Origin: a virus
Virus record (IMG/VR): IMGVR_UViG_3300008259_004660
Span: 64,001 to 128,000 of that record
Length of the DNA: 64,000 nucleotides
Direction: 5' to 3' (one strand)
How positions within the stretch are numbered: position 1 is the first letter of the stretch; every line of letters begins with the position of its first letter. Shown here piece by piece: positions 11,901 to 27,013 of the stretch. The notes beneath the pieces are model-generated. The model searched no databases, was not told the origin of the DNA, and was given only the letters and a program-made list of their open reading frames with translations. The translations under genes were made by a program, and so were the position numbers.

Positions 11901-11901
11901 A

Positions 11902-12424: not shown

Positions 12425-12464
12425 TCCTTGACTTTTTATAATTCTCTGTTAGAGTATTACCACG

Positions 12465-12701
12465 ATGAAAAACGAACTCGCAATCAAGCTCGTCGCTGCT
12501 GCCGACAAGTATCGTGCAGTTGAGCGTAACTATGAGGGTGCTGCTGAAGTGGTCCAATCAGATTACGAAGACCTCATCAGCATTGCTGGTATGATTGAAA
12601 ACAACGAGAGTAAGAAATCCATATCCAATGCTATGTGGAATCTTGACACTCTTGTGCGCGATGTTATTCCTGATAAAGTTTATAACGCTTACAACCGATG
12701 A
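12465..12701 (+). CDS. hypothetical protein
   Basis: Own promoter; 78 aa. Confidence 0.65.
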   Translation: MKNELAIKLVAAADKYRAVERNYEGAAEVVQSDYEDLISIAGMIENNESKKSISNAMWNLDTLVRDVIPDKVYNAYNR

Positions 12702-12862
12702 AAACATACACGGCTGAAGTTACTGTTCGTCTCAAGATCAACGCGAACAGTGAAGACGATGCGCGTTATGCGCTTCAAGAAATGGATTATTCGTTTGACT
12801 TTATTCAAGACCGCGCCGAAATTACTAGCTCCGAAATCACCGATCAACTCATCAAGGACTAA
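12698..12862 (+). CDS. hypothetical small protein (54 aa, not in track)
   Basis: ATGA overlap; MKTYTAEVTVRLKINANSEDDARY. Confidence 0.6.
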   Translation: MKTYTAEVTVRLKINANSEDDARYALQEMDYSFDFIQDRAEITSSEITDQLIKD

Positions 12863-12864
12863 CA

Positions 12865-13269
12865 ATGGCTAACTATTACGAACAGGCTCGCACCAATTAT
12901 TTCAACGTCAAGGACGCTGCTGCATTCCAAAAGTTTATTGAGACATTCAGAGGTATTGATCTTGTTGTTCAAGAGCAGACTGGACAGTATGCTCTGCTTT
13001 TTGACGAGACTGGCATTCCTTGTTCTATCTACGACGAGGAGACTGATGACCACATTGATGTTGATTTTCCTTACGAAGTTTCACAACATCTGACCGATGA
13101 CAGCATTGCTGTTTTCGAAGCGATTGGTAGTGAAAAGATGCGCTATCTTTGCGGCTATGCCATTGCGGTCAATAGCAAGGGAGAGCGTGAGGACATTAAC
13201 ATCTCTGAAATCTATGCACGCGCCAAGGAAAAGTTTGGCGTGAAAGAAATTGGCGAGGCGAGTTATTGA
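12865..13269 (+). CDS. hypothetical phage protein
   Basis: MANYYEQARTNYFNVKD; EKMRYLCGYA. Confidence 0.7.
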   Translation: MANYYEQARTNYFNVKDAAAFQKFIETFRGIDLVVQEQTGQYALLFDETGIPCSIYDEETDDHIDVDFPYEVSQHLTDDSIAVFEAIGSEKMRYLCGYAIAVNSKGEREDINISEIYARAKEKFGVKEIGEASY

Positions 13270-13309
13270 TCTTGACTTTTTATAAAATCTAACCAAACTA
13301 ACTAATACT

Positions 13310-13843
13310 ATGGGATACACAACTGACTTCAATGGTGACTTTGGTCTTGATAAGGTGCTCGCCCCCGAGCACAAAGCCTACTTGCAAAAGTTTGCTCAAA
13401 CGCGCAGAATGAAGCGCAAGGAAGAGCTTACGCTTGAACGCGAAGACCCTATCCGCGATGCTGCGGAACTTCCCGTCGGCTATGACGGTGCATATTTTGT
13501 CGGTGAATTGGGAGACTTTGGTCAAGGAATCGGACACAATCAAAAAGGCATTCCCGACCTTGTTGACTATAACAATCCTCCGTCTGGTCAGCCAAGTCTG
13601 TGGTGTCAATGGACTCCGAGCGATGATGGTTATTCAATCAAATGGGACGGTGGTGAGAAGTTCTATCATTATGTGGAGTGGATTGAGTATCTCATCGAAC
13701 ACTTCCTTAAGCCGTGGGGTTACACTCTTAACGGCGAGGTGGAGTGGTATGGCGAGGACGCCAATGATCGCGGCATGATTGTTATTGACAACAACGTTGT
13801 TAAGACCAAGATTGCTCGTATTGTTTACGAAGACGCCGAATAA
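13310..13843 (+). CDS. hypothetical phage protein
   Basis: MGYTTDFNG, WCQW, DGGEKFYHYVEW, LNGEVEW. Confidence 0.75.
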   Translation: MGYTTDFNGDFGLDKVLAPEHKAYLQKFAQTRRMKRKEELTLEREDPIRDAAELPVGYDGAYFVGELGDFGQGIGHNQKGIPDLVDYNNPPSGQPSLWCQWTPSDDGYSIKWDGGEKFYHYVEWIEYLIEHFLKPWGYTLNGEVEWYGEDANDRGMIVIDNNVVKTKIARIVYEDAE

Positions 13844-13844
13844 A

Positions 13845-14036
13845 ATGAGCAACAAGCAATACTATACAGACAACAAAGGTAGATGGATTGGTTCTGTCAC
13901 CACCGAAAGCAATGGTCGCAAGACCATTTTGGATAACAAAGGTGCTCTACTCGGTCGAGTGCACGATGGTAAGACACTTGACAACAAAGGAGCATTTTTT
14001 GGACGCGGAGATCAATCACAAAGACTGTTCAAGTAA
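13845..14036 (+). CDS. small beta-repeat protein
   Basis: Three DNKG-x-x-x-G repeats in 63 aa. Confidence 0.6.
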   Translation: MSNKQYYTDNKGRWIGSVTTESNGRKTILDNKGALLGRVHDGKTLDNKGAFFGRGDQSQRLFK

Positions 14037-14039
14037 AAT

Positions 14040-14315
14040 TTGATGACAAACAACGACACCGTAAAAATTCTTATCATTGATAGCGCCAAGACGCCGATTC
14101 ATACAGAGAAGTATGAATTCAATGCCACTGACGCTGATAAAATCAAAGAGACAATTCTTTCATCTCTTAATCGACTTGGCAAAGCAACACATGCATTAAT
14201 CAAGTACAAGAACGAGTATTTTATTGCAGATCATACTGCACAAGGTAAGAATATGTCTGAAACATATTATCGCCACAAGATCAAGTATCATCCGTTTATG
14301 AAGTATTTAGCATGA
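14040..14315 (+). CDS. hypothetical protein
   Basis: 91-aa ORF. Confidence 0.6.
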   Translation: MMTNNDTVKILIIDSAKTPIHTEKYEFNATDADKIKETILSSLNRLGKATHALIKYKNEYFIADHTAQGKNMSETYYRHKIKYHPFMKYLA

Positions 14316-14542
14316 ACATCTATCATCTAGACATCAAAGATAAAGAAGATCATCAGTTTGACATTGATTATCATTTTTCTCATCCTACAAAAGGTGCATC
14401 AAATCTGTATGATGATTTCTACACAGCATATGACAAGGTAAGTGAAAGTGAGAATGATTGGAACATTGTTGACATTTTAAATGAACTTGGTAATATGGGA
14501 TGGACAAAAGTAGATGTTCTAACGGTAGATGTCTTTTATTAA
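14312..14542 (+). CDS. hypothetical protein
   Basis: ATGA overlap; 76 aa. Confidence 0.6.
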   Translation: MNIYHLDIKDKEDHQFDIDYHFSHPTKGASNLYDDFYTAYDKVSESENDWNIVDILNELGNMGWTKVDVLTVDVFY

Positions 14543-14600
14543 AAAATTAAAAAACCATCACTTTTTTCTCGACAAATAGAATATATATGCTAAAGTAGAA

Positions 14601-14617
14601 TTGTTCTTTAAATAACA
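14601..14617 (+). promoter_or_regulatory. boxA-like antitermination element
   Basis: TTGTTCTTTAAATAACA after TG-extended -10; resembles rrn boxA TGCTCTTTAACA. Confidence 0.55.
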
Positions 14618-14619
14618 TA

Positions 14620-14810
14620 GATAGGTAAGCATCCCTTTGATGAACCTACGGTGCGCATATCGCGCCGCCAGAATAATACAAGCTACAGACAGAGATGAAA
14701 GAAGCAAGTAGAGATAATGGTGGAGAGAAAGCGACAAACAAACATAGACAAAGATCATTGCTTGGTTAAATCGTAGGCTGTGGATGGATGGAGAATCAGT
14801 CGGTTTGAAA
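14620..14810 (+). ncRNA. candidate ncRNA leading the fMet-like tRNA
   Basis: Nested CATCC/GGATG and CCTACG/CGTAGG pairings around a purine-rich interior. Confidence 0.35.
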
Positions 14811-14821
14811 AATAATTTTGT

Positions 14822-14896
14822 GGCAGGGTAGAGTATGCGGTAACTCGTCACGCTCATAATGTGAAGCAACGGATTCAAACGCCGTCCCTGCTCCCA
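14822..14896 (+). tRNA. degenerate initiator-like tRNA (CAT)
   Basis: Acceptor GGCAGGG/CCCTGCT, D stem GAGT/ACTC, loop CTCATAA, T loop TTCAAAC, encoded CCA; A.G mismatch in T stem. Confidence 0.7.
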
Positions 14897-14938
14897 ATTT
14901 TGTATGTGTCCTGCGACGGGGCATACAAGAAAAAAAGA

Positions 14939-14971
14939 AAAGACCACGCTCCCGAAGGCGTGGTCTTTTTT
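14939..14971 (+). terminator. intrinsic terminator
   Basis: AAAGACCACGC/GCGTGGTCTTT stem plus T tract. Confidence 0.85.
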
Positions 14972-15010
14972 CTTGACTTTTTTAAAAAAAGTCTCCAAGA
15001 TGTTCGCACG

Positions 15011-15157
15011 ATGAAACCCTGCGTCAAGGTTGGAAACAAACTCATTCCACGCAAAAACGTGGAGTTTATTGATATTGAAGAGTGTCCTCTTACTGGCAGA
15101 GATATCATCACGTTTGAATACAAAGGCAATATTCACAAGTCTTATCTCTTTATCTAA
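15011..15157 (+). CDS. hypothetical small protein
   Basis: Leaderless cassette ATG 15011; MKPCVKVGNKLIPRKNV. Confidence 0.6.
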   Translation: MKPCVKVGNKLIPRKNVEFIDIEECPLTGRDIITFEYKGNIHKSYLFI

Positions 15158-15158
15158 A

Positions 15159-15497
15159 ATGAACATCGACTCTATTAGCATCAATGAGTATGATCTGCCC
15201 ATGATCATTCGCAACAATGTGCGAATTGATTGGGTCAATCTTGGTGAAGGAAATGATGGGGATTATGACCCAACTGACAAGTATGATGAAAACCTTCTTC
15301 GTTTTGATGTTTATCGCTTCGACGGCAAGGAGTGGGAAGCTATTGAAGATGGTAGCTATTGCACTCAAGTAGCTGCTGGTACAGACCAAAAGATTTTGAT
15401 TGAACATCTTCGTCACTTTATGGACACCATCTATGACGATGTTTCCACACACGGCAAAGCAAAGCGACTCTGCGAACAGCTTTCTTGGATTGAATAA
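15159..15497 (+). CDS. hypothetical phage protein
   Basis: GEGNDGDYDP..LLRFDVY..SYCT motif. Confidence 0.7.
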   Translation: MNIDSISINEYDLPMIIRNNVRIDWVNLGEGNDGDYDPTDKYDENLLRFDVYRFDGKEWEAIEDGSYCTQVAAGTDQKILIEHLRHFMDTIYDDVSTHGKAKRLCEQLSWIE

Positions 15498-15537
15498 TTC
15501 TTGACTTTTTATAAAATTAATGTAGGATGGTCGCACG

Positions 15538-16257
15538 ATGAACGAACTACTCCTCGCCAAACTCAAGAAGCTCCTCAATCTCAGCAAGTCCGCCAACATT
15601 CACGAGGCGGAGCTTGCTCTCCAAAAGGCTACGGCAATGGCGGCAGAAGCTGGTATCGACCTTGCGATGGTAACTGCCAAGGCTGACAGCGAGGCTGAGA
15701 AGCTGGAAATGGTGCAGGAGACTGCCTTCAATGGCAAGCGTCTGCCTAGCCTTCAGAAGTATGCCTCTTGGCTCCTAAACAAGCATTTCAATGTCCACGT
15801 GATTTATTCTGGCGGGCGCTACTTTGGTCGCAGCGTCAACATTCTCGGAGACAAGCGTGATGTCGAGTTTGCCAAGTTCGTCAACGAGTTTGTGCAGGAT
15901 GATATGCAGCGCCGTTGGGAGTATTACAAGAAGAGCAACGGTTTGAGCGTGCGCATGAAAGACACTTTCATGTACAACCTTTGGCGTGGGTTGGACAGCA
16001 AGCTGACCGAAGCCAAGGCGGCGGCGGAAACTGCCAAGTTCAACGCTATGCCGCAGGAGCAGGTGGCGGACACCAAAGCTCGTTATGGCATCGTGATTTC
16101 GGACAAGAAGGCGGCGGTGCAGCAGTTCGTCAGCAAGACTTATCCCCGCTTGTCAAGCACAAGAATTTCGGTTCGCAACTTTTCTAACTCGACAGTTGCG
16201 ACGGATGGGTATTCAGTTGGGCGTTCAATGAACATCAGCCGCCCAATCGCATGCTAA
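15538..16257 (+). CDS. DUF2786-domain protein
   Basis: KLKKLLNLSKSANIHEAELALQKA N-terminus. Confidence 0.75.
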   Translation: MNELLLAKLKKLLNLSKSANIHEAELALQKATAMAAEAGIDLAMVTAKADSEAEKLEMVQETAFNGKRLPSLQKYASWLLNKHFNVHVIYSGGRYFGRSVNILGDKRDVEFAKFVNEFVQDDMQRRWEYYKKSNGLSVRMKDTFMYNLWRGLDSKLTEAKAAAETAKFNAMPQEQVADTKARYGIVISDKKAAVQQFVSKTYPRLSSTRISVRNFSNSTVATDGYSVGRSMNISRPIAC

Positions 16258-16736
16258 CCTATCGCCAAAATATCACCCACTACCCACAGTTGGGAGCATA
16301 CAACTGTGGGCCTGTGGCCCTTTCCTGCCTCTTTGACACCTCGTTGGAGCAACTGGAGAAAATGGTGGAATGCGACAAAGACAAGGGCACGTACACCACC
16401 AAGGTGGTTGACGCAATGAAGCGTGAGAAAATTGAGTGCAGCCATATCTCCCTTAATGGTGACGGTGAAAACCATCTGTGGTGGTTGGAGCTTAACTCCT
16501 ACCGTTGGCCCATCTACCTTGGTTGTCACTTCATCGTGCAGGGCAAGCGTGGTCGCCCCAGCAACCACCATCACGCTGTGCTGCTCGCGAATGGTATGAT
16601 CTATGATGGCAACAGCCATCGTGAGGAGCCAATCGGTGCTGTCGCAGAGAAGTTCAACAAGAAGTTTGTTGTGAAAGATGCAATCATCTTCCATCATGAA
16701 TTGAAGGGTTGGAAACAAAATTTGGAAGCCGCATAA
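16251..16736 (+). CDS. papain-fold (C39-like) cysteine peptidase
   Basis: Q..YNCGPVAL, HHAVLL, IYD give a Cys-His-Asp triad. Confidence 0.65.
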   Translation: MLTYRQNITHYPQLGAYNCGPVALSCLFDTSLEQLEKMVECDKDKGTYTTKVVDAMKREKIECSHISLNGDGENHLWWLELNSYRWPIYLGCHFIVQGKRGRPSNHHHAVLLANGMIYDGNSHREEPIGAVAEKFNKKFVVKDAIIFHHELKGWKQNLEAA

Positions 16737-16813
16737 CTTTTTTCACGAAAAATTAAATTTTTTGTTGACTTTGTTTGGAAATAAAATATTTATCGGTGAT
16801 CCCTTTTTCTCCG

Positions 16814-16936
16814 ATGAAGCTCATAATTTCCAGTGGTAAAATTTTAAAGGTCAATCACCCAAATCTTCCTATACCAGCCCCCACGCAATTACCCGCGCCA
16901 AGATTGGTCACAGAAAAAAAAGTGAAAAAGCCTTGA
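16814..16936 (+). CDS. 40-aa Pro/Lys-rich peptide behind a TATTTAT motif
   Basis: MKLIISSGKILKVNHPNLPIPAPTQLPAPRLVTEKKVKKP*; stop lies in the next -35 box. Confidence 0.35.
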   Translation: MKLIISSGKILKVNHPNLPIPAPTQLPAPRLVTEKKVKKP

Positions 16937-16968
16937 CATTTTTTATTTTTTAATCATCCTAATTAGCA

Positions 16969-17142
16969 ATGAACACTTACAAAGTACCTGTTACTTGGAG
17001 AGAGTATGGTCATGTCTTTGTCAAGGCAGACAGTATTGAAGAAGCTATTCAAAAAGCCCACGATGAAGATTTGCCCCACGACAACAGCGAATATCTTGAA
17101 GGTAGTTTTGAAATTGATTACGAGGGCGTTCGCGCAATCTAA
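16969..17142 (+). CDS. hypothetical small protein (57 aa, not in track)
   Basis: MNTYKVPVTWREYGHVFVKADSIEEAIQKA. Confidence 0.65.
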   Translation: MNTYKVPVTWREYGHVFVKADSIEEAIQKAHDEDLPHDNSEYLEGSFEIDYEGVRAI

Positions 17143-17148
17143 CCATAC

Positions 17149-17225
17149 GCGACCGTAGCTCAGTTGGATAGAGCAACAGATTTCTAATCTGTGGGTCGTG
17201 GGTTCGAATCCCACCGGTCGCGCCA
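17149..17225 (+). tRNA. tRNA-Arg(TCT)
   Basis: GCGACCG/CGGTCGC acceptor, loop TTTCTAA, GTTCGAATC, CCA. Confidence 0.97.
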
Positions 17226-17278
17226 TTCTAAAAATAATTCTTGACTTTTTATAAAAATCTGTCAACCTAATCAGCACT

Positions 17279-17746
17279 ATGGGACTAGATATGTATCTCA
17301 GCGCCGAGAAGTATATCTCGGGTTATGACCACGACAAGAATGAGAACTTCGGCAAAGTTCTTGATCTTTTTAATCTAAACGAGGATGATGTTCACAATTC
17401 TATCACGGTCAACATCACCGTTGGTTATTGGCGCAAGGCCAATGCCATTCATAATTGGTTCGTTCAAAATATACAGGATGGTAGGGATGATTGCCAACGC
17501 AGCTATGTTCGCCGCGAAAAACTACTTGAGTTGAAGAGTGAGTGTGAAGCTGCTCTTGCTGCCTACAACAATGGTGACAAGGATACGGCGGAAAACCTAA
17601 TTCCTCCTACTAGTGGATTTTTCTTTGGAAGCACCGAAGTTGATGATTGGTACAAGGCCGATTTGGTTGAAACCATCAAAATCATTAACACGTGTTTGAG
17701 TGATAAGTTAAATGGATTTGGATTTTACTACCAATCCAGTTGGTAA
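17279..17746 (+). CDS. hypothetical phage protein
   Basis: MGLDMYL, YWRKANAIHNWF, GFFFGST, YQSSW. Confidence 0.8.
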   Translation: MGLDMYLSAEKYISGYDHDKNENFGKVLDLFNLNEDDVHNSITVNITVGYWRKANAIHNWFVQNIQDGRDDCQRSYVRREKLLELKSECEAALAAYNNGDKDTAENLIPPTSGFFFGSTEVDDWYKADLVETIKIINTCLSDKLNGFGFYYQSSW

Positions 17747-17785
17747 TACTTGACTTTTCTTAAAAAGTATCCACACTTCTACTCA

Positions 17786-18103
17786 ATGAACGCTACGAAC
17801 ATCGAACCTCAAACCTGCCACTACATCACTGCCAACACGTTGGCAAAGATGAGCAAGAATGCTGCCGAGGCTATTGATGCCTTGTTCAACTCTGATTTGG
17901 ATGTTAGCTTTGGCGATGCTAATCGCACTCTGATCGACATCCCTCATTTCCTACGCCTATTGGAGGATGGTATGGAGCAGCAGGGTATTTTTTGGGTTCC
18001 TCTTGGCCCCGATGATGACGAGACGCACCACGCTGGTTACGAGGAAATCAAGAACGCGCTTGACGAATACACTAACGAAGTTTACATTGATCTCGAAAAC
18101 TGA
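17786..18103 (+). CDS. hypothetical protein (IDLEN family)
   Basis: SFGDANRTLI..EVYIDLEN. Confidence 0.7.
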   Translation: MNATNIEPQTCHYITANTLAKMSKNAAEAIDALFNSDLDVSFGDANRTLIDIPHFLRLLEDGMEQQGIFWVPLGPDDDETHHAGYEEIKNALDEYTNEVYIDLEN

Positions 18104-18115
18104 AATAACACCACG

Positions 18116-18307
18116 ATGAAACTGACGCAATACATCCGCCAACTCCAAGAAATCGCCAAGAAGCAGCCTGACGCAGAAGTGATTTATGCGGCAGACGAAG
18201 AAGGTAATAGTTATTCTCCTGTTTTTTACGAGCCGTCTCTTGGTTATTTTGATGGAGACAGTTTTGACACCACGGCGAAGCCTGTCAACGCCATCTGTAT
18301 CAACTAA
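18116..18307 (+). CDS. hypothetical phage protein
   Basis: EVIYAADEEGNSYSPV, NAICIN. Confidence 0.7.
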   Translation: MKLTQYIRQLQEIAKKQPDAEVIYAADEEGNSYSPVFYEPSLGYFDGDSFDTTAKPVNAICIN

Positions 18308-18316
18308 TTTTAGCTC

Positions 18317-18392
18317 GGGCTGGTAGCTCAACGGTCAGAGCAGAGGACTCATAATCCTTTGGTTAGGGGTTCGAATCCCTTCCGGCCCACCA
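18317..18392 (+). tRNA. tRNA with CAT anticodon (Ile2-like or elongator Met)
   Basis: GGGCTGG/CCGGCCC acceptor with C4-G69, loop CTCATAA, CCA. Confidence 0.93.
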
Positions 18393-18402
18393 CTTTTATC
18401 AT

Positions 18403-18588
18403 ATGAAAACAATAATCAACAAAATAAAGGAGAACTCCACACAACTTATTCAAGGACTGTTTCTTGGTCTTTTTCTAACAATGGGTATTTTCAACATCGT
18501 TGATGGCATTTTCTTTTCAAAGATTATGTGGCAGACGAACTGCGGAGTTAATCAGATCATCATCGGTGCAATCATGTCCAAGATTTAG
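18403..18588 (+). CDS. small two-TM membrane protein
   Basis: Two hydrophobic segments in 61 aa. Confidence 0.55.
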   Translation: MKTIINKIKENSTQLIQGLFLGLFLTMGIFNIVDGIFFSKIMWQTNCGVNQIIIGAIMSKI

Positions 18589-18638
18589 TTCTTGACTTTT
18601 TATAAAGAACAAGTACTCTGTGTCTTGTTCTTTTCAAT

Positions 18639-18713
18639 GGTCTTGTAGCTCAATGGTAGAGCCGTTGACTTTTAATCAATTGGTTGTGGGTTCGAATCCC
18701 ACCGGGACCACCA
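18639..18713 (+). tRNA. tRNA-Lys(TTT)
   Basis: GGTCTTG/CGGGACC, GTTGA-CTTTTAA-TCAAT, CCA. Confidence 0.97.
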
Positions 18714-18718
18714 ATTTC

Positions 18719-18793
18719 GCGATGAACCCAAAGACAAGGAGGGGGTGGGCTCGGTTCCCACAATAGTGCGTGAAAGCTCGCACCATCGCACAA
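18719..18793 (+). ncRNA. tRNA-like cloverleaf RNA with non-canonical loops
   Basis: GCGATG/CATCGC acceptor, GTGGG/CCCAC and GTGCG/CGCAC arms, ACAA end. Confidence 0.55.
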
Positions 18794-18846
18794 TTTTTAT
18801 TGACAATTTAGGTAGGTAAGTCATAGTTATCTTTGTTCTTTTTAAT

Positions 18847-18921
18847 GCCGAGTTAGCACAATGGCGGTGCAACTGTTTTGTAAACAGTAGGTTGTCGGTT
18901 CGAATCCGACACTCGGCTCCA
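18847..18921 (+). tRNA. tRNA-Thr(TGT)
   Basis: GCCGAGT/ACTCGGC, ACTGT-TTTGTAA-ACAGT, CCA. Confidence 0.96.
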
Positions 18922-18930
18922 TTTTTCAGA

Positions 18931-19019
18931 CAGAGGTGCAAGTAAGTCGTCTACATCCTCTGGAGTACTGCATAAGGTGCTTGACAGCAGTAAATAACAG
19001 GGCTCATGATCCTGCCTCT
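18931..19019 (+). ncRNA. three-hairpin structured spacer RNA
   Basis: CAGAGG/CCTCTG, TACTGC/GCAGTA, CAGG/CCTG. Confidence 0.4.
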
Positions 19020-19038
19020 TTATCTGAACATTTTTTAC

Positions 19039-19113
19039 GCCGCTATCGTCTAACGGTTAGGACGCCGGATTTTCATTCCGATAATCGGGGTTCGATTCCC
19101 CGTAGCGGTACCA
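19039..19113 (+). tRNA. tRNA-Glu(TTC)
   Basis: GCCGCTA/TAGCGGT, loop TTTTCAT, GTTCGATTC, CCA. Confidence 0.95.
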
Positions 19114-19118
19114 ATTTT

Positions 19119-19313
19119 ATGAACGATTCTCATTTACTTCCTCCTCAAGCAGACATTGACGCTGCACTTCAGATTGAAAAGAGTGTGAAGCCAAGTGAGC
19201 GTGAGCGTTATTTGGAGTACATGAACAATGTTCCTATGTCTGACCGCAAGACCGCAAGAGAATTGCGTGATGGATGTATCTTGAGCCAACTTTTCAATCG
19301 TTTTCGCAGTTAA
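19119..19313 (+). CDS. hypothetical protein
   Basis: ATG 19119, MNDSHLLPPQ; 64 aa. Confidence 0.55.
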   Translation: MNDSHLLPPQADIDAALQIEKSVKPSERERYLEYMNNVPMSDRKTARELRDGCILSQLFNRFRS

Positions 19314-19357
19314 AGTTCTTGACTTTTTTTAAAATCTGTTCATTCTATCTCTTGTCA

Positions 19358-19539
19358 ATGAGGTTTGGAAGCCGTCAACTGCCTCATCATTAAATTCAGG
19401 TATTGCTGAATGGCGCGGCCCAATTTTTGTTCTTTGTGGCCACAAAAACCGGTGTCAGGGAGCCCACAGGGTTATCCCTTATTGTGGGGAACGCTAGTCC
19501 CACGGCTCCACGGGGAGTCTCCGGAAATCTAGCGCGCCA
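19358..19539 (+). ncRNA. candidate structured ncRNA ending in GCCA
   Basis: Own promoter at 19317; TGGCGCG/CGCGCCA, GGAGC/GCTCC, CCCACA/TGTGGG. Confidence 0.55.
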
Positions 19540-19589
19540 ATTTTCTCTTGACTTTTTTTAAAATCTGTTCATTCTCTTCTTTGTTCTTT

Positions 19590-19814
19590 GGTAGTATCAA
19601 GACAGATAAAAGTCGCCTTGCGCGATGGAATCAAAGTTGAACAGTGATGTGTTCAATGAAAGGGTTTGGATTTATCACCAAATACCTGAGATTTAACCGA
19701 CCAGCGCCACCATTAAAAGCAAAGCCACACGGCATTGATTCGTCGGAAAGAGCAGCTTGAAAGTGTGAAACTCTTGCGGAACAGCAGAATTCCGCTATCT
19801 GTCTTGATATTATC
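19590..19814 (+). ncRNA. candidate ~225-nt multibranch ncRNA
   Basis: 14-bp perfect (19 with G-U) terminal helix; several internal hairpins; own promoter and boxA. Confidence 0.7.
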
Positions 19815-19853
19815 ATTGACTTTCTTTAATTTTTGTTCATTCTCTTCTTTGTT

Positions 19854-19981
19854 CTAGGGTGCATTGCCAATAGGAAGTACTCACGGAACTACAGTAAGCA
19901 ACAGTTAGTGCGGAACTCGTGACGAAGATTCTGATCAAATCCTAGTTAGCGTGATTATGGATCGGCTCCATCGCTGTTGCT
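19854..19981 (+). ncRNA. candidate pseudoknotted ncRNA
   Basis: CTAGG/CCTAG, TCACG/CGTGA, and crossing AGCAACAG/CTGTTGCT. Confidence 0.55.
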
Positions 19982-20005
19982 GAAATCTTTTTTGTTCTTT
20001 TGATT

Positions 20006-20167
20006 TTCTCTCATTATTCCGCAACATTGTAAAAGGTGAAGCGCGTGTATCGAAAAATGTAATGGGAGAATATTTTTTGGCAGGTCGCTCTGCCGGAACT
20101 CTAAAATCTATGCCAAGCGCTAGTGACCCTTGCCGGTATCACACAGGTTGACCTCTGGATTTTAGAG
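20006..20167 (+). ncRNA. two tandem long-stem, large-loop hairpin RNAs
   Basis: 11-bp and 12-bp stems, each ending in GAGAATATTTT. Confidence 0.45.
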
Positions 20168-20178
20168 AATATTTTTAC

Positions 20179-20260
20179 GCAGTGTTGGTGTAGCTGTGCA
20201 ATAAACATAGTTGGCAATCCTGCCAAAAGTCGGGCAGCGCGTCCTGCTCACACTGCTCCA
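20179..20260 (+). ncRNA. anticodon-less tRNA mimic with encoded CCA
   Basis: GCAGTGT/ACACTGC-T-CCA acceptor plus three arms. Confidence 0.7.
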
Positions 20261-20305
20261 ATTTATCTTGACTTTTTTTAATTCTTCAACGACACTATCA
20301 GCAAG

Positions 20306-20470
20306 ATGAAACTTGAATGCTGCGATGTTGAGTTAGATTATGAGAGTGCTGGACGGCGTGACACCGAGACGATTGGTGGATACAGCGTCGAGTATTTTAT
20401 CTGTTCTGAATGCAAGCAGCGTTATGAACTTATCGGAAATAGTTTGTGTATGACTGAAGAAGAGCCTTGA
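20306..20470 (+). CDS. 54-aa Cys-rich (Zn-ribbon-like) protein, not in track
   Basis: MKLECCD...FICSECKQRY; promoter 38 nt upstream. Confidence 0.6.
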   Translation: MKLECCDVELDYESAGRRDTETIGGYSVEYFICSECKQRYELIGNSLCMTEEEP

Positions 20471-20503
20471 CTTTCTTTAAATTTAGTTCAAACTGACTTC
20501 ACG

Positions 20504-20704
20504 ATGAAGCCCGAATATCGCATTCAGATTTACGACAAGCAGTACCTTGAATGGAATACTTTTCCTGATGGATGTTTTGATAGTAAAGAAAAGGCTATTG
20601 CTGAAGCGGTTAAGGTTCTTAAGGGGTGGGGTAAACGCAATCACAAGATTCGTTTGATTGAAGTGTGTGAGAAAGTTATTCGGCTTCCAAGCATCAAGAA
20701 ATAA
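20504..20704 (+). CDS. hypothetical protein
   Basis: Promoter cassette; 66 aa. Confidence 0.65.
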   Translation: MKPEYRIQIYDKQYLEWNTFPDGCFDSKEKAIAEAVKVLKGWGKRNHKIRLIEVCEKVIRLPSIKK

Positions 20705-20709
20705 ATCAT

Positions 20710-20916
20710 ATGGAACACCCTCTATATTATGCCATTGATTATGATCTTAATGTGATCAAGTTGGGTTATTTTGACAACGATCATCTTGCTTGGCTTTATA
20801 CTGAAAAAAAGGAGATTGAGTTTATGAAAATTCTTAATCACGCTGAACTGATTACTCTTTACAACAACATTGATGCTGCCACATCAGATTCATTGGCTGG
20901 ACAACCTTTTGCTTGA
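20710..20916 (+). CDS. hypothetical protein
   Basis: 68 aa; stop in the next -35 box. Confidence 0.6.
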   Translation: MEHPLYYAIDYDLNVIKLGYFDNDHLAWLYTEKKEIEFMKILNHAELITLYNNIDAATSDSLAGQPFA

Positions 20917-20950
20917 CTTTTTTTATTTAGGTCTCCATACTACTCCCATA

Positions 20951-21244
20951 ATGAAAATCAAACTGCAAGAAGCTCTTGACCTTATTCAAGCTGCTGATGT
21001 TGTTCGTGTAACTGATATGGATGGATTTATTGAGCCTATCATCTCATTCAGTGATATTGAAGGCAAGCCAGACAATGAGTTTATGTATATGAGTTGGGAT
21101 GATGAACATGATGAGTTTGGTGCCAGATTTCTTGAAGAAGGCAATGAAGAAGTAGAGCGTGATGGCAACAAGATTGCTATCACCGACAGCGAAGGCAGCG
21201 AGTTTGAGTTTAATCTGTTTCGCCTAGTGCCGATTCTAGCTTGA
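20951..21244 (+). CDS. hypothetical acidic protein
   Basis: ATG 20951 at cassette distance. Confidence 0.65.
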   Translation: MKIKLQEALDLIQAADVVRVTDMDGFIEPIISFSDIEGKPDNEFMYMSWDDEHDEFGARFLEEGNEEVERDGNKIAITDSEGSEFEFNLFRLVPILA

Positions 21245-21328
21245 CTTTTAATACATAGGCGCGTAACCTGACTGCCTATCAACGTGGAGCCAACCAAGCA
21301 CAACTCCACCAATCATTTTAAAAATCAA

Positions 21329-21691
21329 ATGCCTCGTCCAAAGAAGATCAAAGTTGAAGTTCCCAAAGGACCGCCCAAGAAACGTGGGCGCAAACCCAAG
21401 CCAAAGGTTTTGAGCATCAAAACTGAAGAAGGTTACACAGAAATTCCTTTGGATGGTTTGAAATTTCCTTGGACTGGTAATCCAGATTATTTCAAGAGCG
21501 AATCAACTCCATTAAGCATCAGCGAGATGACCAAGGAATCTTGTGCTTATCCCAATCGCTACCTTGATGATCAATGCTTTGGATGTTCCATCTATGATTC
21601 TTGTAGATGTTCTTTGAAGTACAACAAAGAAGATATGAAAAAGCCAGTTGAAAAGGTGAAGATTAAGAAGTTAAGTTCATTCGATTCATAA
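21329..21691 (+). CDS. basic AT-hook-like, Cys-cluster protein
   Basis: KKRGRKPK; CAYP...CFGC...CRC. Confidence 0.65.
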   Translation: MPRPKKIKVEVPKGPPKKRGRKPKPKVLSIKTEEGYTEIPLDGLKFPWTGNPDYFKSESTPLSISEMTKESCAYPNRYLDDQCFGCSIYDSCRCSLKYNKEDMKKPVEKVKIKKLSSFDS

Positions 21692-21787
21692 CTTATTTGA
21701 AATTAAAGTGTTAGAGGACGGGAGAAAAGGGTAAAAAGTTACAATTTTTCTTGATTTTTTTTAAAAATATGTCAGAGTATGGCCAAG

Positions 21788-22117
21788 ATGAACGCCACCA
21801 AGAAAGACACCGTCCAGTACGTCAAGAATCAACTCGCCACCAACAAGGTGTGGGCGCTGAAGGCTCTGATCCGCATCTATCAGGAGAACCAAACTGCCGA
21901 TGAGCAGGCGGCGAAGGTCACCAGTCACGACAACGGCATTGGTTTCAGCGGCTGTGATGCCGAGTTCCTTTCTAGTCTCGCGGAGCAGTATCTGCGCCGT
22001 GGTAACCTGAGCGACAAGCAAATGAGTTTCGTCCACCGCAAGATGCCGAAGTATGCTCGGCAGGTCATCGCGATGAGCGATGCATCCAAGTTGGACGCTA
22101 TGGTCGTAGCGGGGTAA
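21788..22117 (+). CDS. hypothetical phage protein
   Basis: QTADEQ, NGIGFSGCDAEFLSSLA, LSDKQ, KYARQ. Confidence 0.75.
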   Translation: MNATKKDTVQYVKNQLATNKVWALKALIRIYQENQTADEQAAKVTSHDNGIGFSGCDAEFLSSLAEQYLRRGNLSDKQMSFVHRKMPKYARQVIAMSDASKLDAMVVAG

Positions 22118-22197
22118 CCCCTGCTGTGGGGTGCGCACACAAATCACGCACAATAATTCTTGACTTTCTTTAATTTAAAATCCAAGATACTTGCACG

Positions 22198-22422
22198 ATG
22201 AAATACGGAAACATCAGCAACGTGATGGTATTCAAGACCGAGGAAACTTTCAACAAGGCGTTGGCCCTTCTCACGAAGAACGGTCACGGTTTCGAGATGA
22301 GTGGCTATCCTCTTGCTCTCAATTTCTATCCTGAACACCGCCACAGCTATGTTTATGCTCAGATCGATCTGGCGTTGGCTGGCATCAATGACGGAGAAGA
22401 TTATGGAATCAAGTATCGTTAA
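22198..22422 (+). CDS. hypothetical protein
   Basis: Promoter cassette. Confidence 0.65.
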   Translation: MKYGNISNVMVFKTEETFNKALALLTKNGHGFEMSGYPLALNFYPEHRHSYVYAQIDLALAGINDGEDYGIKYR

Positions 22423-22464
22423 TTACTTGACTTGTTTTAAATTTAACACCAACATATCAGCACT

Positions 22465-22650
22465 ATGAACTACGCTTACTTGTCTGGATACCTTCAAAGC
22501 GCATTGGAAAATCTCGCTTATGATGACAAATTTCTTAAGATGAAAAGTGATGATCGTCGTAGGGATTATCTTCGAGAAATGGTTCGTGAGGCTCAACTCA
22601 AGGCAATTGAATTCGAGTCCGAAGTTAATTCCAAGATGATCAAGATCTGA
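22465..22650 (+). CDS. hypothetical protein
   Basis: MNYAYLSGYLQS; promoter cassette. Confidence 0.65.
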   Translation: MNYAYLSGYLQSALENLAYDDKFLKMKSDDRRRDYLREMVREAQLKAIEFESEVNSKMIKI

Positions 22651-22656
22651 AAATTT

Positions 22657-22950
22657 ATGTCGAACAAAACCAAACGCATCAAGTACAACACGCCGCTGAC
22701 ATTTCCTCAGACATTTACTCTGAGGGAACTGCGAAAGGCAAACGCGAACAAGATGAAGCTGATTACCATCTACTCACGTGTGCAGAATGGAATTGAAAAT
22801 GGTACCATTGAAGAGGTTGGTATTCAACAGCCGTCTGTGTCTCGTCGTGGACGCAAGGAGATTGTCTACAAGATTGTGGAGGTGGTAGGTGCCCCTGCAT
22901 GCAACATTGCACCCATCACTGATGGCAACAGTTCAGACAATCCTTTTTGA
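22657..22950 (+). CDS. possible winged-helix-like DNA-binding protein
   Basis: FTLRELRKAN, RRGRKEIVY. Confidence 0.55.
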   Translation: MSNKTKRIKYNTPLTFPQTFTLRELRKANANKMKLITIYSRVQNGIENGTIEEVGIQQPSVSRRGRKEIVYKIVEVVGAPACNIAPITDGNSSDNPF

Positions 22951-22952
22951 AA

Positions 22953-23327
22953 ATGAAGTTAACTAATTTCCAAAAGTGGTATTACACTACACTTCCCAAG
23001 ATCTTTGAATCTGGTGACAATGTCGATGGATGGATCCGATTCGAAAGCAAATATCGAAAAATGGATGCATTTTACAATAAAAGATATGGCACAGTTGTGA
23101 AGCGTCCAAAGTTTATTATGGATAAGCGCACTCCGCTTTATTTGCGCGTACCCACAATCAATTTAGGTGATGGATGGGTTCTTCAGCCAATTGTGAAGAA
23201 AACCAATTTAAAGAAAGCTGTCAATGAAATCAAATCTGCACTCAAGAAGCACTCCGCTATTAATCCAGACATTCACGTTGGAAATGTTGGATGGTATGAA
23301 GGTAAACCATTGATGTTTGATTGGTGA
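22953..23327 (+). CDS. minimal protein-kinase-like fold protein
   Basis: VVKRP, WVLQPIV, DIHVGNVG, LMFDW. Confidence 0.55.
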   Translation: MKLTNFQKWYYTTLPKIFESGDNVDGWIRFESKYRKMDAFYNKRYGTVVKRPKFIMDKRTPLYLRVPTINLGDGWVLQPIVKKTNLKKAVNEIKSALKKHSAINPDIHVGNVGWYEGKPLMFDW

Positions 23328-23371
23328 AATTTTCTTGACTTTAAATAAAAATGAGGTCTTAATAACCCACG

Positions 23372-23596
23372 ATGAAATACGAATACGTTGCTGAAAAAAT
23401 TGCAGTGTTCATTACTGCATTGTGCGTTATTTTTTTGGGATCTTTGGTTCTTGCGCTTCCTTTGCTTTGGCTTTGGAACGCAACAATGCCTGAGTTATTT
23501 GGTCTAAAAGAAATTAGTTGGTGGATGGCTTGGAAGCTTATGCTACTCTCATCCATTCTGTTCAAGAATTTCTTCAGCACATCAAAAAGTTCTTGA
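23372..23596 (+). CDS. small membrane protein
   Basis: Two TMs; LWLWNATMPELFGLKEISWW. Confidence 0.7.
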   Translation: MKYEYVAEKIAVFITALCVIFLGSLVLALPLLWLWNATMPELFGLKEISWWMAWKLMLLSSILFKNFFSTSKSS

Positions 23597-23630
23597 TTTT
23601 TATAAAAATTCTGCGATACTATTCAACATC

Positions 23631-23999
23631 ATGAGCAACACCACCATCGTTGAGAAGCTGAATCTGGATATGCCGCTCACGGATTTCATTCGTGGCGTGA
23701 ACAAGATCATCAATGATCATTGGACCAGTTCTGGGTTTGTCCACAACGATGCTCCGCTTGTGATGGTGGACAGTGTTGGACCCAAATATGCCAAGTTGGC
23801 GGTCTATGAGAAGCGTCCAGCTAAAACTGGTCCGCTTGTGGCGGAGCGGGTGTATTGCTTCTACAATCACACCAACGGCGACCTTCTCAAGGGAAGTTGG
23901 AAGGCTCCTGTGGCCAAGGGTGTGCGTGGCAATGTGAAGGAAACCAATGTGCTGGACAAGTTTGATTGGCACGGCCCCAAGTATCTGCGGGGTCTGTGA
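23631..23999 (+). CDS. hypothetical phage protein
   Basis: GPKYAKL, GDLLKGSWKAPVAKGVRGNV. Confidence 0.75.
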   Translation: MSNTTIVEKLNLDMPLTDFIRGVNKIINDHWTSSGFVHNDAPLVMVDSVGPKYAKLAVYEKRPAKTGPLVAERVYCFYNHTNGDLLKGSWKAPVAKGVRGNVKETNVLDKFDWHGPKYLRGL

Positions 24000-24044
24000 T
24001 TTTCTTCTTTACTTTTTATAAATCTGTGCTAGAGTATACGCACG

Positions 24045-24263
24045 ATGAACAACGAAACTTGGACCGAGTGCTTCAGTCAGTATCGCCTTCTTGGTGGTCT
24101 CACCCAAGCTATGCTGCGCAAGTGGGCGGCGGATTTCTTGGTAGAGCGTGGGTTTGACGAGATTGGATCCTCTGACATCAACCACAGCCTCTTTGATATG
24201 TGGGAGGCGGCGGGCGGCGATTGGCAGAAGGCGATCCTTAACGAGGTAGATGCTCGCAGTTAA
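24045..24263 (+). CDS. hypothetical protein
   Basis: Promoter cassette; GFDEIGSSDINH. Confidence 0.65.
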   Translation: MNNETWTECFSQYRLLGGLTQAMLRKWAADFLVERGFDEIGSSDINHSLFDMWEAAGGDWQKAILNEVDARS

Positions 24264-24310
24264 AATAATTCTTGACTTTACTTAAAACATAAACCAACAT
24301 AAACACCGTT

Positions 24311-24607
24311 ATGATTAATCCTCCCAACACTGTTATCTTCCAATATGTCCGCAATCGGCGGCGGCAGAAGGTCGGCGTCGTTGCCGCTTTGAAGCGAAGC
24401 GACAACACGGTCGGTCTCGGTTATAGTCTTTGCGCTACCAATCGGGGCGACACTTTCAATCCTACCACCGCGCTAAACATCGCGCTTGGTCGGGCTGATA
24501 CCTTCCCCCATTTTGAGTGCAAGGAGATTCCGCAGAGCGTGGAGAAGGACTGGAGCGAGATCTATGATCGCGCCGTCCGCTACTTCAAGGGCTGCGAGAT
24601 CGGTTAA
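24311..24607 (+). CDS. hypothetical phage protein
   Basis: GYSLC..DTFN..ALNIALGRA. Confidence 0.7.
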   Translation: MINPPNTVIFQYVRNRRRQKVGVVAALKRSDNTVGLGYSLCATNRGDTFNPTTALNIALGRADTFPHFECKEIPQSVEKDWSEIYDRAVRYFKGCEIG

Positions 24608-24688
24608 AGTTTCCACGGTGGGGAGCGCATACCAGTTCACGCTCACTTTTTTCTTTACTTTTAATAAAAATCTGTCAGTGTTTGCACC

Positions 24689-24913
24689 ATGAACTCTGCC
24701 ACCATCTCCAACAACGAAGTTGCTGCTGTCTACTCTGCTCGCGATGGACGCGAGTATCTGACCATCGACATTCCCAATGGTTGGGATGATGTCAAGAAGC
24801 TGACCAAGAAGGTGCTGACCTACAACGGCAGCAAGTTCGTGTTCACGGGTTGGAACAGCGACACGCTCAAGTGCTACTTTGTTGGCACAAAGAATGTGGC
24901 GACGATTTCTTAA
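24689..24913 (+). CDS. hypothetical protein
   Basis: Promoter cassette; GWDDVKKL, FTGWNSD. Confidence 0.7.
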   Translation: MNSATISNNEVAAVYSARDGREYLTIDIPNGWDDVKKLTKKVLTYNGSKFVFTGWNSDTLKCYFVGTKNVATIS

Positions 24914-24956
24914 CTTTTTTCTTTACTTTTAATAAAAACCTGTCACTGTATTCACC

Positions 24957-25262
24957 ATGAACTCCACCATTACCTTCGCTGACGCTGGGCTGTTTGCTAT
25001 CGCCGTGACCGCCCTTGAGATGGATGCAACTCCTCCCTACACCGTGGACGAGGACACTCTCACCATCAACGCCGAGGACATTGATGGTGTGGTGGACATT
25101 CTCCACGACAACGGTATCTTCAACTTCATCTGCTATCGCGCCGATGGCGACACGGAGCACGATCAGTTCCGCAGTGATGCGGAGGCTGATGCCGATGCCC
25201 TCGCCTCTGCTGGATTCGGCACTGATGAGGACTATGGCTACTACGGTGGCGACGATGAGTAA
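24957..25262 (+). CDS. hypothetical acidic protein
   Basis: DADALASAGFGTDEDYG. Confidence 0.7.
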   Translation: MNSTITFADAGLFAIAVTALEMDATPPYTVDEDTLTINAEDIDGVVDILHDNGIFNFICYRADGDTEHDQFRSDAEADADALASAGFGTDEDYGYYGGDDE

Positions 25263-25263
25263 G

Positions 25264-25458
25264 ATGGTTGGCCCCGCCAGCTTGGACGACATCCTTAATG
25301 GGCCTCGTCCAAGACTGGTGGGTCGGTTGGTGTTTGACCACAAGACCGCGCCGAGCTTGATGCTCCTCACAGAAGATCAAGCAAAAGCACATGACAAGGC
25401 AACACGCCGAGCAGGTTATGGCACTTGTTTAAAAAGAGTTTCGCCACACCGTTCTTGA
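25264..25458 (+). CDS. hypothetical protein (start uncertain)
   Basis: Stop TGA in the next -35 box. Confidence 0.4.
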   Translation: MVGPASLDDILNGPRPRLVGRLVFDHKTAPSLMLLTEDQAKAHDKATRRAGYGTCLKRVSPHRS

Positions 25459-25491
25459 CTTTAATTAAAAAATAATCATCATTTCATCACA

Positions 25492-25788
25492 ATGAGCTAC
25501 AACATCTCTAGTTGCTTGATCAAGTCGTCTGCGATTACCAGCCATCCTAATGGTGAACTGACCACACGAGCTTTTGTTAATTATTTTGACAATCAGTTTG
25601 TTGGAAAGTTCAGTCCTGTCAAAGTGGAAAAGCTTGATATTACCAATTCAAATGGTGTAAGTTTTTTTAAGCGTGATGCTGATATCAGCGTTTCTGCTCT
25701 TCGCGCCATTGCTGCTGGTTTAATTGAAATTGCCGATAGTGCTGAACAGGCGCATGCTCGTATGGCTGAATTGAACAAGAAGGCTTGA
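25492..25788 (+). CDS. hypothetical protein
   Basis: Promoter cassette; 98 aa. Confidence 0.6.
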   Translation: MSYNISSCLIKSSAITSHPNGELTTRAFVNYFDNQFVGKFSPVKVEKLDITNSNGVSFFKRDADISVSALRAIAAGLIEIADSAEQAHARMAELNKKA

Positions 25789-25821
25789 CATTGGTTAAAA
25801 CAACATTCAATCTATCTACCT

Positions 25822-26511
25822 ATGCCTAATTGGTGCTCAAACACAATCGTTGTTAGTGGTGAAGCTGCTGATGTTGTCGAATTCAATGAGTGGCTTGGCG
25901 ATGGCAAGGCTCTGCTGTCCAAGATCAATCCTACGCCAACACAGTTGACTGAAACTACCGCTGGGTTTCACGGTGATCCTGAAAAGCAAAAAGAGCTTGA
26001 AAAGCAAGAGCAATCTAATCTTGAACAGTTTGGTCACAAGAACTGGTATGATTGGAACATTGCCAATTGGGGAACCAAGTGGGATGTTGATGCTGAAGTG
26101 GATGATGTCAGCAGCATTAATGAACAGATTATTTTTAGTTTTGAAAGTGCTTGGGCTCCACCGCAGCGTGCCATCTCTGCTATTGCTGAAAAGTTCAACA
26201 AGTTGACCATTCGTCATTCTTATCTTGAAGAGGGTGTTGGTTTCGTTGGATATGATTTGTATGAGAAGGGCGAGTTAGCCAACGAAGAATACAATGAGGA
26301 CTCTGATAGTGATGCTTGGAAGCAGCTTGCGCAGGATGAATTTGGTTGGGAGCCTTGGCCCGACGATGATACTGAACTGGAGCAGGTTGAAGTCACGGAA
26401 GTTCCAAAGCCTGCTGAAAAGCCTGCCAAGAAAAAGGTGAAGAAGACTGCTGTCAAAAAGACTTCCAAGAAAACGACAAAGAAAGTCGCAAAGAAGAAAA
26501 AGAAGAAGTAA
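25822..26511 (+). CDS. YubB/DUF1281-like ferredoxin-fold protein with Lys-rich tail
   Basis: MPNWC, WYDWNIANWGTKWD, FESAWAPP; PAKKKVKK tail. Confidence 0.75.
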   Translation: MPNWCSNTIVVSGEAADVVEFNEWLGDGKALLSKINPTPTQLTETTAGFHGDPEKQKELEKQEQSNLEQFGHKNWYDWNIANWGTKWDVDAEVDDVSSINEQIIFSFESAWAPPQRAISAIAEKFNKLTIRHSYLEEGVGFVGYDLYEKGELANEEYNEDSDSDAWKQLAQDEFGWEPWPDDDTELEQVEVTEVPKPAEKPAKKKVKKTAVKKTSKKTTKKVAKKKKKK

Positions 26512-26537
26512 AATTTGGTGAGGTAGGTGTTCATAGT

Positions 26538-26571
26538 GGCGGGGGAGCGTAGTGGCTCCCCCGCCTTTTTT
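26538..26571 (+). terminator. intrinsic terminator (copy 1 of duplicated cassette)
   Basis: GGCGGGGGAGC/GCTCCCCCGCC plus T6. Confidence 0.9.
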
Positions 26572-26610
26572 CTTGACTAACTTTAATTTTTAATCTTTAA
26601 TAAGAGCAAC

Positions 26611-26844
26611 ATGGACACCAAAGAATTTAATCGCGATCAATTGAAAAAATGCTTTCTTGATCTTTCAATACGAGCAAAAGAACTGAATGAACCCTACATC
26701 CAAAGTGTAGCAATGGTTCTTGCCGCATCAATTGCAGAAGAAAGTGATGCTGCTCTTGCTATTTGGGTAGGTGAGTTTGCCAAGATGAGAATTGATGACA
26801 TTGAAGATCAGATATTTGGTGAAGAAGATGAAAATGCGCCTTGA
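26611..26844 (+). CDS. hypothetical protein
   Basis: Promoter cassette; 77 aa. Confidence 0.65.
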   Translation: MDTKEFNRDQLKKCFLDLSIRAKELNEPYIQSVAMVLAASIAEESDAALAIWVGEFAKMRIDDIEDQIFGEEDENAP

Positions 26845-26878
26845 CTTTTGATAAAAAAGAATCATAGTTATCAGCACT

Positions 26879-27013
26879 ATGAAGATGAACACCACTATCA
26901 AGATTCGCAGCCAATTCACCTCTGGTCTTAATTTGGGTGGCTGCACCCACAAGACCAAGAAGGGCAAAGGCAGTTATTCTCGCAAAGCCAAGTATGGCAA
27001 TCGTTGGGAGTAA
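26879..27013 (+). CDS. arfA: ArfA-like ribosome rescue peptide (44 aa, not in track)
   Basis: HKTKKGKGSYSRKAKYGNRWE versus E. coli ArfA [22 protein letters not shown]. Confidence 0.7.
   Translation: MKMNTTIKIRSQFTSGLNLGGCTHKTKKGKGSYSRKAKYGNRWE

Follow-up and report, generated by a model that had tools for sequence, protein, structure and literature searches.

A Candidate Noncoding RNA Closed by a 20-bp Terminal Helix in the tRNA Island of a Freshwater Jumbo Phage

INTRODUCTION

Bacteriophage T4 encodes, within its tRNA gene cluster, two small stable RNAs named species 1 and species 2, which are made early in infection, are released by host processing enzymes, and have no known function. Y-like RNAs are found in some actinophages. 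Phage accessory genes are nearly always regarded as proteins.

Here we describe unit B, a candidate noncoding RNA unit of ~230 bases (window positions 19583 to 19815, + strand) that belongs, as a kind, with the phage stable RNAs found beside tRNAs. Like the T4 RNAs, it is a non-tRNA unit lying among phage tRNA genes. The T4 species, however, are cotranscribed with the tRNAs and have tRNA-like 3' ends, whereas unit B is provided with a promoter of its own and a 20-bp end-to-end stalk and lacks a CCA-like end, and there is no sequence relationship between them.

RESULTS

An RNA gene island in a region of repeated promoters. The stretch of DNA analyzed here, referred to as the window, comprises 64,000 nucleotides (bases 64001 to 128000) of a 184.8-kb IMG/VR virus contig (IMGVR_UViG_3300008259_004660) with a CheckV completeness of 78%. 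The contig has the traits of a jumbo phage, with DnaK, helicase, and baseplate genes (the full-length DnaK is encoded at window positions 47465 to 49324), and near-identical DNA is present in many metagenomes of lakes and fresh water, obtained in several studies; the source is a freshwater jumbo phage. Aquatic jumbo "moraphages" that encode DnaK/DnaJ and for which Bacteroidota hosts are predicted have been described (PMC12619734, 2025).

From ~10100 to 27600, almost all small genes stand behind a promoter of the form CTTGAC(T)-N16/17-yAnnnT, and the start codon of these small-gene cassettes lies 37 to 40 nt past the promoter C, a fixed spacing which implies that the mRNAs are close to leaderless. 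Within this region lies an RNA gene island (18600 to 20265) in which ARAGORN recognized tRNA-Lys, tRNA-Thr, and tRNA-Glu, followed by four noncoding units, namely, A (19355 to 19546), B (19583 to 19815), C (19850 to 20000), and D (20000 to 20265). All genes of the island region are on the + strand. The island as a whole is a more interesting object than unit B alone.

Unit B has its own promoter and an RNA-type leader. In the sequence-only reading that drew attention to the element, a dedicated promoter and a boxA had been assigned to it. The promoter is borne out: CTTGACT-N16-CATTCT at 19547 to 19575 (+ strand), with the -35 hexamer TTGACT at 19548 to 19553, a 16-nt spacer, and the -10 hexamer CATTCT at 19570 to 19575, is one of a family of ~35 early promoters. 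A generic sigma-70 scan did not call it because its -10 hexamer is weak. From the promoter geometry, transcription is predicted to start at about G19583, so that the RNA would begin with GUUCUUUGG. The boxA, a signal which in rrn-type antitermination is bound by NusB-NusE in the leader RNA, comes down to a resemblance between TTGTTCTTT (19581 to 19589, + strand) and the boxA consensus.

This leader motif nevertheless marks a class of cassettes. It occurs as nine exact + strand copies in the 185-kb contig, five of them within 18625 to 19992, and each of these five stands directly before a tRNA or a structured unit. Unit C is preceded by a variant, and the leader is also found before tRNAs in the related loci L003 and L079. 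Its position before RNA genes indicates that unit B belongs to the RNA class of cassettes. A similar promoter and leader (...cataggcgcg...cctatcaacgtgg.gccaaccaagc) are also found at window positions 21240 to 21300 and at L079 5985 to 6065, where they precede a 135-amino-acid ORF in the window and a tRNA-Leu in L079.

The island promoters are repeated in tandem at 19317 to 19346, 19546 to 19575, and 19816 to 19855, the first two being identical over 30 nt. The first 30 nt of the unit B promoter match the copy at 19317 to 19346, and its last 23 nt match 19833 to 19855, the promoter of unit C; judged from these matches, it looks chimeric, with a 5' part from the first copy and a 3' part from the third. 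The tandem copies appear to be recombination substrates for the gain and loss of cassettes. A consensus scan found no intrinsic terminator between the island units.

Unit B lacks a convincing open reading frame. On the + strand, unit B holds only ORFs of 38 and 40 amino acids with GTG/TTG starts, and on the - strand, it holds one of 61 amino acids. The existence of these ORFs is what speaks for a small protein as the product of the unit, a reading that we regard as the least credible of those considered here. None of the ORFs had a Pfam match, the 61-amino-acid ORF had no homologue among 5.8 billion proteins and runs on the - strand in a region where every gene is on the + strand, and gene callers left the region empty on two independent contigs (L086 and L088). 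Moreover, the ATG that is found at the fixed distance of +37 to 40 in the ~35 ORF cassettes of the window is, unlike in those cassettes, absent after the unit B promoter.

The predicted ends of the unit are joined by a 20-bp helix. The exact 14-nt inverted repeat (19595 to 19608 and 19796 to 19809) was located where it had been reported, and the helix around it, which had been put at 19 bp, is one pair longer, with 20 contiguous pairs between a 5' arm at 19589 to 19608 and a 3' arm at 19796 to 19815 (+ strand; pair probability, 0.99). On the + strand, 18 of the pairs are Watson-Crick and two are G-U (G19591-U19813 and G19594-U19810); on the - strand, both G-U pairs turn into A-C mismatches, and the fold of that strand is therefore weaker. 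The 5' arm begins ~6 nt past the predicted transcription start, and the 3' arm extends up to the base that precedes the next -35 hexamer (TTGACT, 19816 to 19821). These positions between two promoter copies indicate that the helix joins both predicted ends of one transcription unit.

An exact 14-mer inverted repeat within 300 nt is by itself not rare (0.45 expected per contig, two seen). Runs of at least 18 Watson-Crick pairs, in contrast, were not produced by any of 60 Markov shuffles of the 185-kb contig, where the longest run had 16; in the real contig, the closing helix is the top local helix. When G-U pairs were allowed without limit, runs of at least 20 pairs arose in 2 of 30 shuffles, and hence it is the Watson-Crick content that makes the closing helix exceptional. 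Further long local helices are found at window positions 7662 to 7902, 37272 to 37469, and 8317 to 8830, with 19, 18, and 16 pairs, respectively.

An RNase III stalk consists of about two turns (at least 20 bp) of near-perfect double-stranded RNA formed by the flanks, and the closing helix offers 20 contiguous pairs. Judged from this length, processing of the stalk by RNase III is plausible. The phage contig (78% complete) encodes no RNase III, double-stranded RNA binding domain (dsRBD), or RtcB protein, which points to host enzymes for any such processing. Neither these genes nor a Ro/TROVE or reverse transcriptase gene is there to hint at a phage-encoded partner of the RNA, a point against a functional RNA.

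The fold of unit B is stable, with a stalk and apical hairpins predicted. The + strand RNA has a predicted folding energy of -75.9 kcal/mol (z = -5.4 versus shuffles), compared to a z of -3.4 for the - strand. Against real 236-nt windows of the phage, its GC-corrected energy ranks 9th of 542 (-2.15 standard deviations; about the top 2%), so that the overall stability is good but not extreme, and it is the long closing helix, rather than overall stability, that is the exceptional feature. Windows at 8379, 25135, and 28203 also fold more strongly than their GC content predicts.

The element had been described as a multibranch noncoding RNA. Its noncoding character and the strongly closed + strand structure were upheld; the multibranch interior is a single-sequence prediction, and the ensemble prefers a stalk of ~41 bp in its place. 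Each of the interior helices named in that description can be found in the sequence, and four of them are well represented among predicted pairs (GAATCAA/TTGATTC, pair probability of 0.69; TTGAACA/TGTTCAA, 0.95; GTTTGG/CCAAAT, 0.86; and GCGGAA/TTCCGC, 0.94), with AAGAG/CTCTT appearing solely in the minimum-energy fold, which departs from the ensemble in the mid-region.

In the ensemble fold, the ~41-pair stalk, extension included, carries an apical three-way region on top. The extension is predicted, from this single sequence, to pair 19610 to 19634 with 19735 to 19758 (+ strand; P = 0.69 to 0.85) through five short helices with 1-nt bulges and small internal loops between them. Above it, apical hairpin 1 (19636 to 19657) has an 8-bp stem and the loop GUGAUG (P = 0.95), and apical hairpin 2 (19661 to 19687) has nine pairs, one bulge, and an 8-nt loop (P = 0.84 to 0.86). 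The 47-nt C/A-rich segment that follows (19688 to 19734) is mostly unpaired according to its pair probabilities, which allow just a 3-bp GCC/GGC hairpin and a weak 2-bp pairing, and may be regarded as a candidate interaction surface. On the 3' side, the basal hairpin GCGGAA/UUCCGC (19776 to 19795, + strand; P = 0.94) directly abuts the closing helix and was scored as weakly terminator-like in the consensus scan. The interior remains a prediction because homologues are absent.

Two side observations concern short motifs. The GUGAU of the hairpin 1 loop (19644 to 19648) is complementary to AUCAC at 19674 to 19678, in and beside the hairpin 2 loop, and a kissing or intermolecular contact between the two loops is possible, at an estimated chance level of ~0.06 to 0.1. 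The hexamer CGGAAC is found at 19777, 19884, 19911, and 20094, so that units B, C, and D together contain it four times; this 16-fold enrichment is not significant once it is corrected for the 4,096 hexamers; GCGGAAC is highly repeated in genes at ~169 to 185 kb of the contig, beyond the window.

Unit B does not fall into a known RNA class. A search of Rfam, which had been proposed as a check on the element, returned no family at gathering thresholds or at an E value of ≤10. The likeness to a 6S-type closing stem that had been remarked upon did not hold, as RF00013 and its relatives gave no + strand match at an E value of ≤10 and the predicted fold is not a rod with a central bubble; we therefore rejected 6S RNA. 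A tRNA or tmRNA was likewise rejected, since ARAGORN and Rfam found no cloverleaf or tRNA-like domain in unit B and placed tRNAs only at 14822 to 19113. Unit B shares with Y RNAs the paired 5'/3' end stem (the 20-bp helix; P = 0.99). An assignment to Y RNA/YrlA was nonetheless rejected: the tRNA-like T-loop module, an Rfam match, and a TROVE partner were all not found, the GTTCAA of unit B sitting within a stem and not in a loop and the Ro/TROVE domain (PF05731) having no match in the 185-kb contig (78% complete). A retron msr-msd was rejected since the contig encodes no reverse transcriptase (PF00078).

Unit B is a strain-specific cassette. Related loci were gathered in three ways, by means of the flanking proteins, by exact look-up of the downstream 54-amino-acid protein, and by means of six alleles (73 to 94% identity) of the upstream 64-amino-acid protein. 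Outside the window, only three metagenome contigs among them (L086, L087, and L088) carry unit B, and the four copies thus known show 100% identity to one another. The closest strain that has diverged (L085/L089/L090; 82 to 96% DNA identity) has the sequence corresponding to 19119 to 19331 joined directly to that of 19813 to 19992, so that units A and B are missing, and the junction falls within the repeated promoter. Loss of A and B together, with a junction in a repeated promoter, is the behavior expected of a modular cassette. Other strains carry units A2, C, and D in different orders and never B, and L003 and L079 have similar islands with other small units. One of the contigs with unit B, L088, which is otherwise identical to the window, lacks 90 nt at 3626/3627 (window 19842 to 19931), a stretch that takes in the -10 region as well as half of unit C, on its 5' side; the gap marks either a genuine deletion variant or an artifact of assembly.

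Using blastn and nhmmer, only the identical copies of unit B were recovered from 82 loci of relatives and 31 strain loci, and the covariance model R1 had no hit in 1.13 Mb of related loci (best E value, 2.2) or in five whole contigs of relatives (best E value, 0.3). A blastn search of INPHARED with 19300 to 20100 gave no match. In IMG/VR, a stem-gap-stem pattern scan did not find unit B, and an 18-mer scan gave two chance hits with no further similarity; two mixed exact/R-Y patterns found nothing in JGI metagenomes or in GTDB genomes. For all of these pattern scans, near-identical records may lie outside the scan results. A scan of all loci for units with the leader and a long stem yielded a single comparable helix, at L083 2160 to 2426. 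This 20-bp inverted repeat spans the intergenic region of two divergent genes together with their start codons, and a TTGACT promoter and a structured, GC-rich stretch lie in between. Since what it surrounds is a divergent promoter region with two start codons, it was rejected as a counterpart of unit B.

Unit B is thus an orphan and a singleton and should not be called a conserved RNA family. The copies are identical and diverged homologues number zero in the collections searched, so that there is no covariation and no proof of selection on its structure, and, as it is restricted to one strain lineage, any function is conjectural.

The pattern of terminal inverted repeats of 14 to 20 bp around ~190 bp, polymorphic in presence and absence, recalls a MITE-like element inserted behind a promoter. 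We consider such an origin very improbable: the element is present as a single copy in the contig and was found in none of the IMG/VR, JGI metagenome, or GTDB scans, no target site duplication or direct repeat lies beside the arms, and the indel between related strains comprises A plus B between promoter repeats and not B alone.

Neighboring units of the island show conservation. Units A2, C, and D are conserved, in shuffled order, from strain to strain. In unit C, an ATGGA/TCCAT hairpin has undergone one compensatory change, from T-A to G-C, which indicates that the island does hold RNAs under structural selection. The invariant core of unit C reads AGTTAGTGCGGAACTCGT...GCGTGATT...GGATCG.CTCC in an alignment (A2) of window positions 19850 to 20000, L085 3723 to 3875, L103 3233 to 3380, L003 10676 to 10792, and others; the L003 copy is without the 5' half. 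Two further small noncoding units are common to L003 (10985 to 11140) and L079 (4562 to 4735), where they stand in opposite order. One of these reads ...ttggttgagatagaatagtctattaaagatgg... and the other has a gcgcgtgaaagctcgcgc hairpin, and both are seemingly absent from the window. In addition, L003 10870 to 10955 looks tRNA-like, with a GTTCGAATC T-loop, and was not called by ARAGORN.

Metatranscriptome contigs map to the island. Four metatranscriptome runs, from rivers and other sources, that share words with 19000 to 20500 were mapped on 18500 to 20700; these data are assembled contigs, and their depth and ends are weak evidence. In one river run (X19), a 166-nt contig with a depth of 3.3 matches 19636 to 19801 with no mismatches and lies entirely within unit B. 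As to whether the helix belongs to a transcript, this one low-depth contig is a weak hint, with DNA carry-over possible. Runs X15, X16, and X17 gave contigs on units C and D (19897 to 20000; 20052 to 20267, 20081 to 20264, and 20079 to 20251) and no cover on unit B, and unit A was covered in no run, which does not imply absence. Unit D, a tRNA-mimic region, is covered by three runs, and two of its contigs stop at 20264 to 20267, at the next promoter. No phage-specific contig of the RNA libraries lies on the flanking ORFs, a hint that the island RNAs are more abundant than the neighboring mRNAs, with the same reservation about DNA carry-over.

The X19 contig also bears on two readings in which unit B would have no function as an RNA of its own. 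In the first, unit B acts purely in cis, as an RNase III site or as a weak terminator made of the basal hairpin and a U-rich tract, which would keep the transcripts of the promoters at 19318 and 19547 apart from the next unit, the interior being functionless. The missing intrinsic terminators between the units, a 20-bp helix (~41 bp with the predicted extension) that is long enough for RNase III, the terminator-like score of the basal hairpin, and the dispensability of unit B in related strains all agree with a cis role. A processing site, however, needs neither a 187-nt insert nor its own promoter nor three stable hairpins, the other unit boundaries of the island are without such a stalk, and the RNA contig spans the interior. 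A purely cis-acting element seems to us rather improbable.

The second of these readings takes unit B to be a neutral by-product at the DNA level, with a repeat produced by template switching or by recombination as cassettes were shuffled and an insert that is captured junk behind a duplicated promoter. We rate this as unlikely, if less so than an exclusively cis-acting role. An orphan known from one lineage and from identical copies alone is what such an origin would leave, the chimeric-looking 19547 promoter shows that recombination is active here, and the strand specificity of the helix rests on two G-U pairs, for which the random chance was estimated at ~0.1. Against a neutral origin, the ends of the helix fall no more than a few bases from those of the transcription unit, the hairpins of the interior are stable too (P = 0.85 to 0.95), the phage contains no source copy elsewhere, and the RNA contig falls inside unit B.

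DISCUSSION

On balance, we lean towards the view that unit B is a real, independently transcribed noncoding RNA whose ends are defined by its stalk and which is carried as a strain-specific cassette, an "RNA moron." Host RNA polymerase would start at about G19583, at the standard early promoter of the phage, and the transcript would open with the U-rich TTGTTCTTT leader, as do the neighboring tRNAs. Its first and last 20 nt would pair, and the pairing probably extends into the imperfect ~41-bp stalk. As no intrinsic terminator separates the units, the stalk would be the feature that defines the RNA: host RNase III may excise the RNA at the stalk from read-through transcripts, or the paired ends may block exonucleases. 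The apical hairpins and the 47-nt C/A-rich strand would then be the likely functional surface, and we infer that the RNA could act in trans on a host or phage factor to which it binds. Recombination between the repeated promoters would bring the cassette into a genome or remove it.

A broader reading, which we hold only tentatively, is that the island is a swap shop of promoter-plus-RNA cassettes traded via identical promoters and that unit B is a trans-acting decoy or sponge RNA of an undescribed class, its paired ends serving stability. The decoy or sponge could, for example, be directed against a host RNA-binding defense or against a takeover target.

It is in this island, where small RNAs and tRNAs shuffle in the same manner, that we find a noncoding RNA behaving like a moron. 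Provided that the RNA is stable and trans-acting, RNA cargo would join the strain-level weapons of phages, and at ~230 nt and with known ends, unit B would be a tractable example. At present, as a singleton candidate without comparative support, unit B is of value mostly as part of the larger island.

In comparison with known systems, unit B recalls 6S RNA in its size of ~200 nt and its long end-to-end closing stem. In 6S RNA, however, a central bubble lies between two helices, whereas unit B is predicted to have a stalk, apical branches, and a one-sided 47-nt single strand. Bacterial Y RNA (YrlA), the partner of Ro/Rsr, similarly has a long stem of its 5' and 3' ends topped by a structured module. 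Unit B, however, has neither a T-loop nor a tRNA-like module and is matched by no Rfam family, and the contig lacks a TROVE protein.

The nearest analogues by function and context are the T4 stable RNAs, rRNA processing stalks, and phage morons, with no membership by sequence in any of them. As in the rRNA precursor stalks that are cut by RNase III, the flanks of unit B pair over at least 20 bp around a whole RNA and a boxA-like motif stands in the leader; the insert of unit B, however, is 187 nt long and is not rRNA, and its cleavage is a prediction. As with phage morons, unit B forms a transcription unit of its own that some strains have and close relatives lack. It differs from morons in that its cargo is a noncoding RNA, no terminator follows it, and gain and loss proceed via the repeated promoter.
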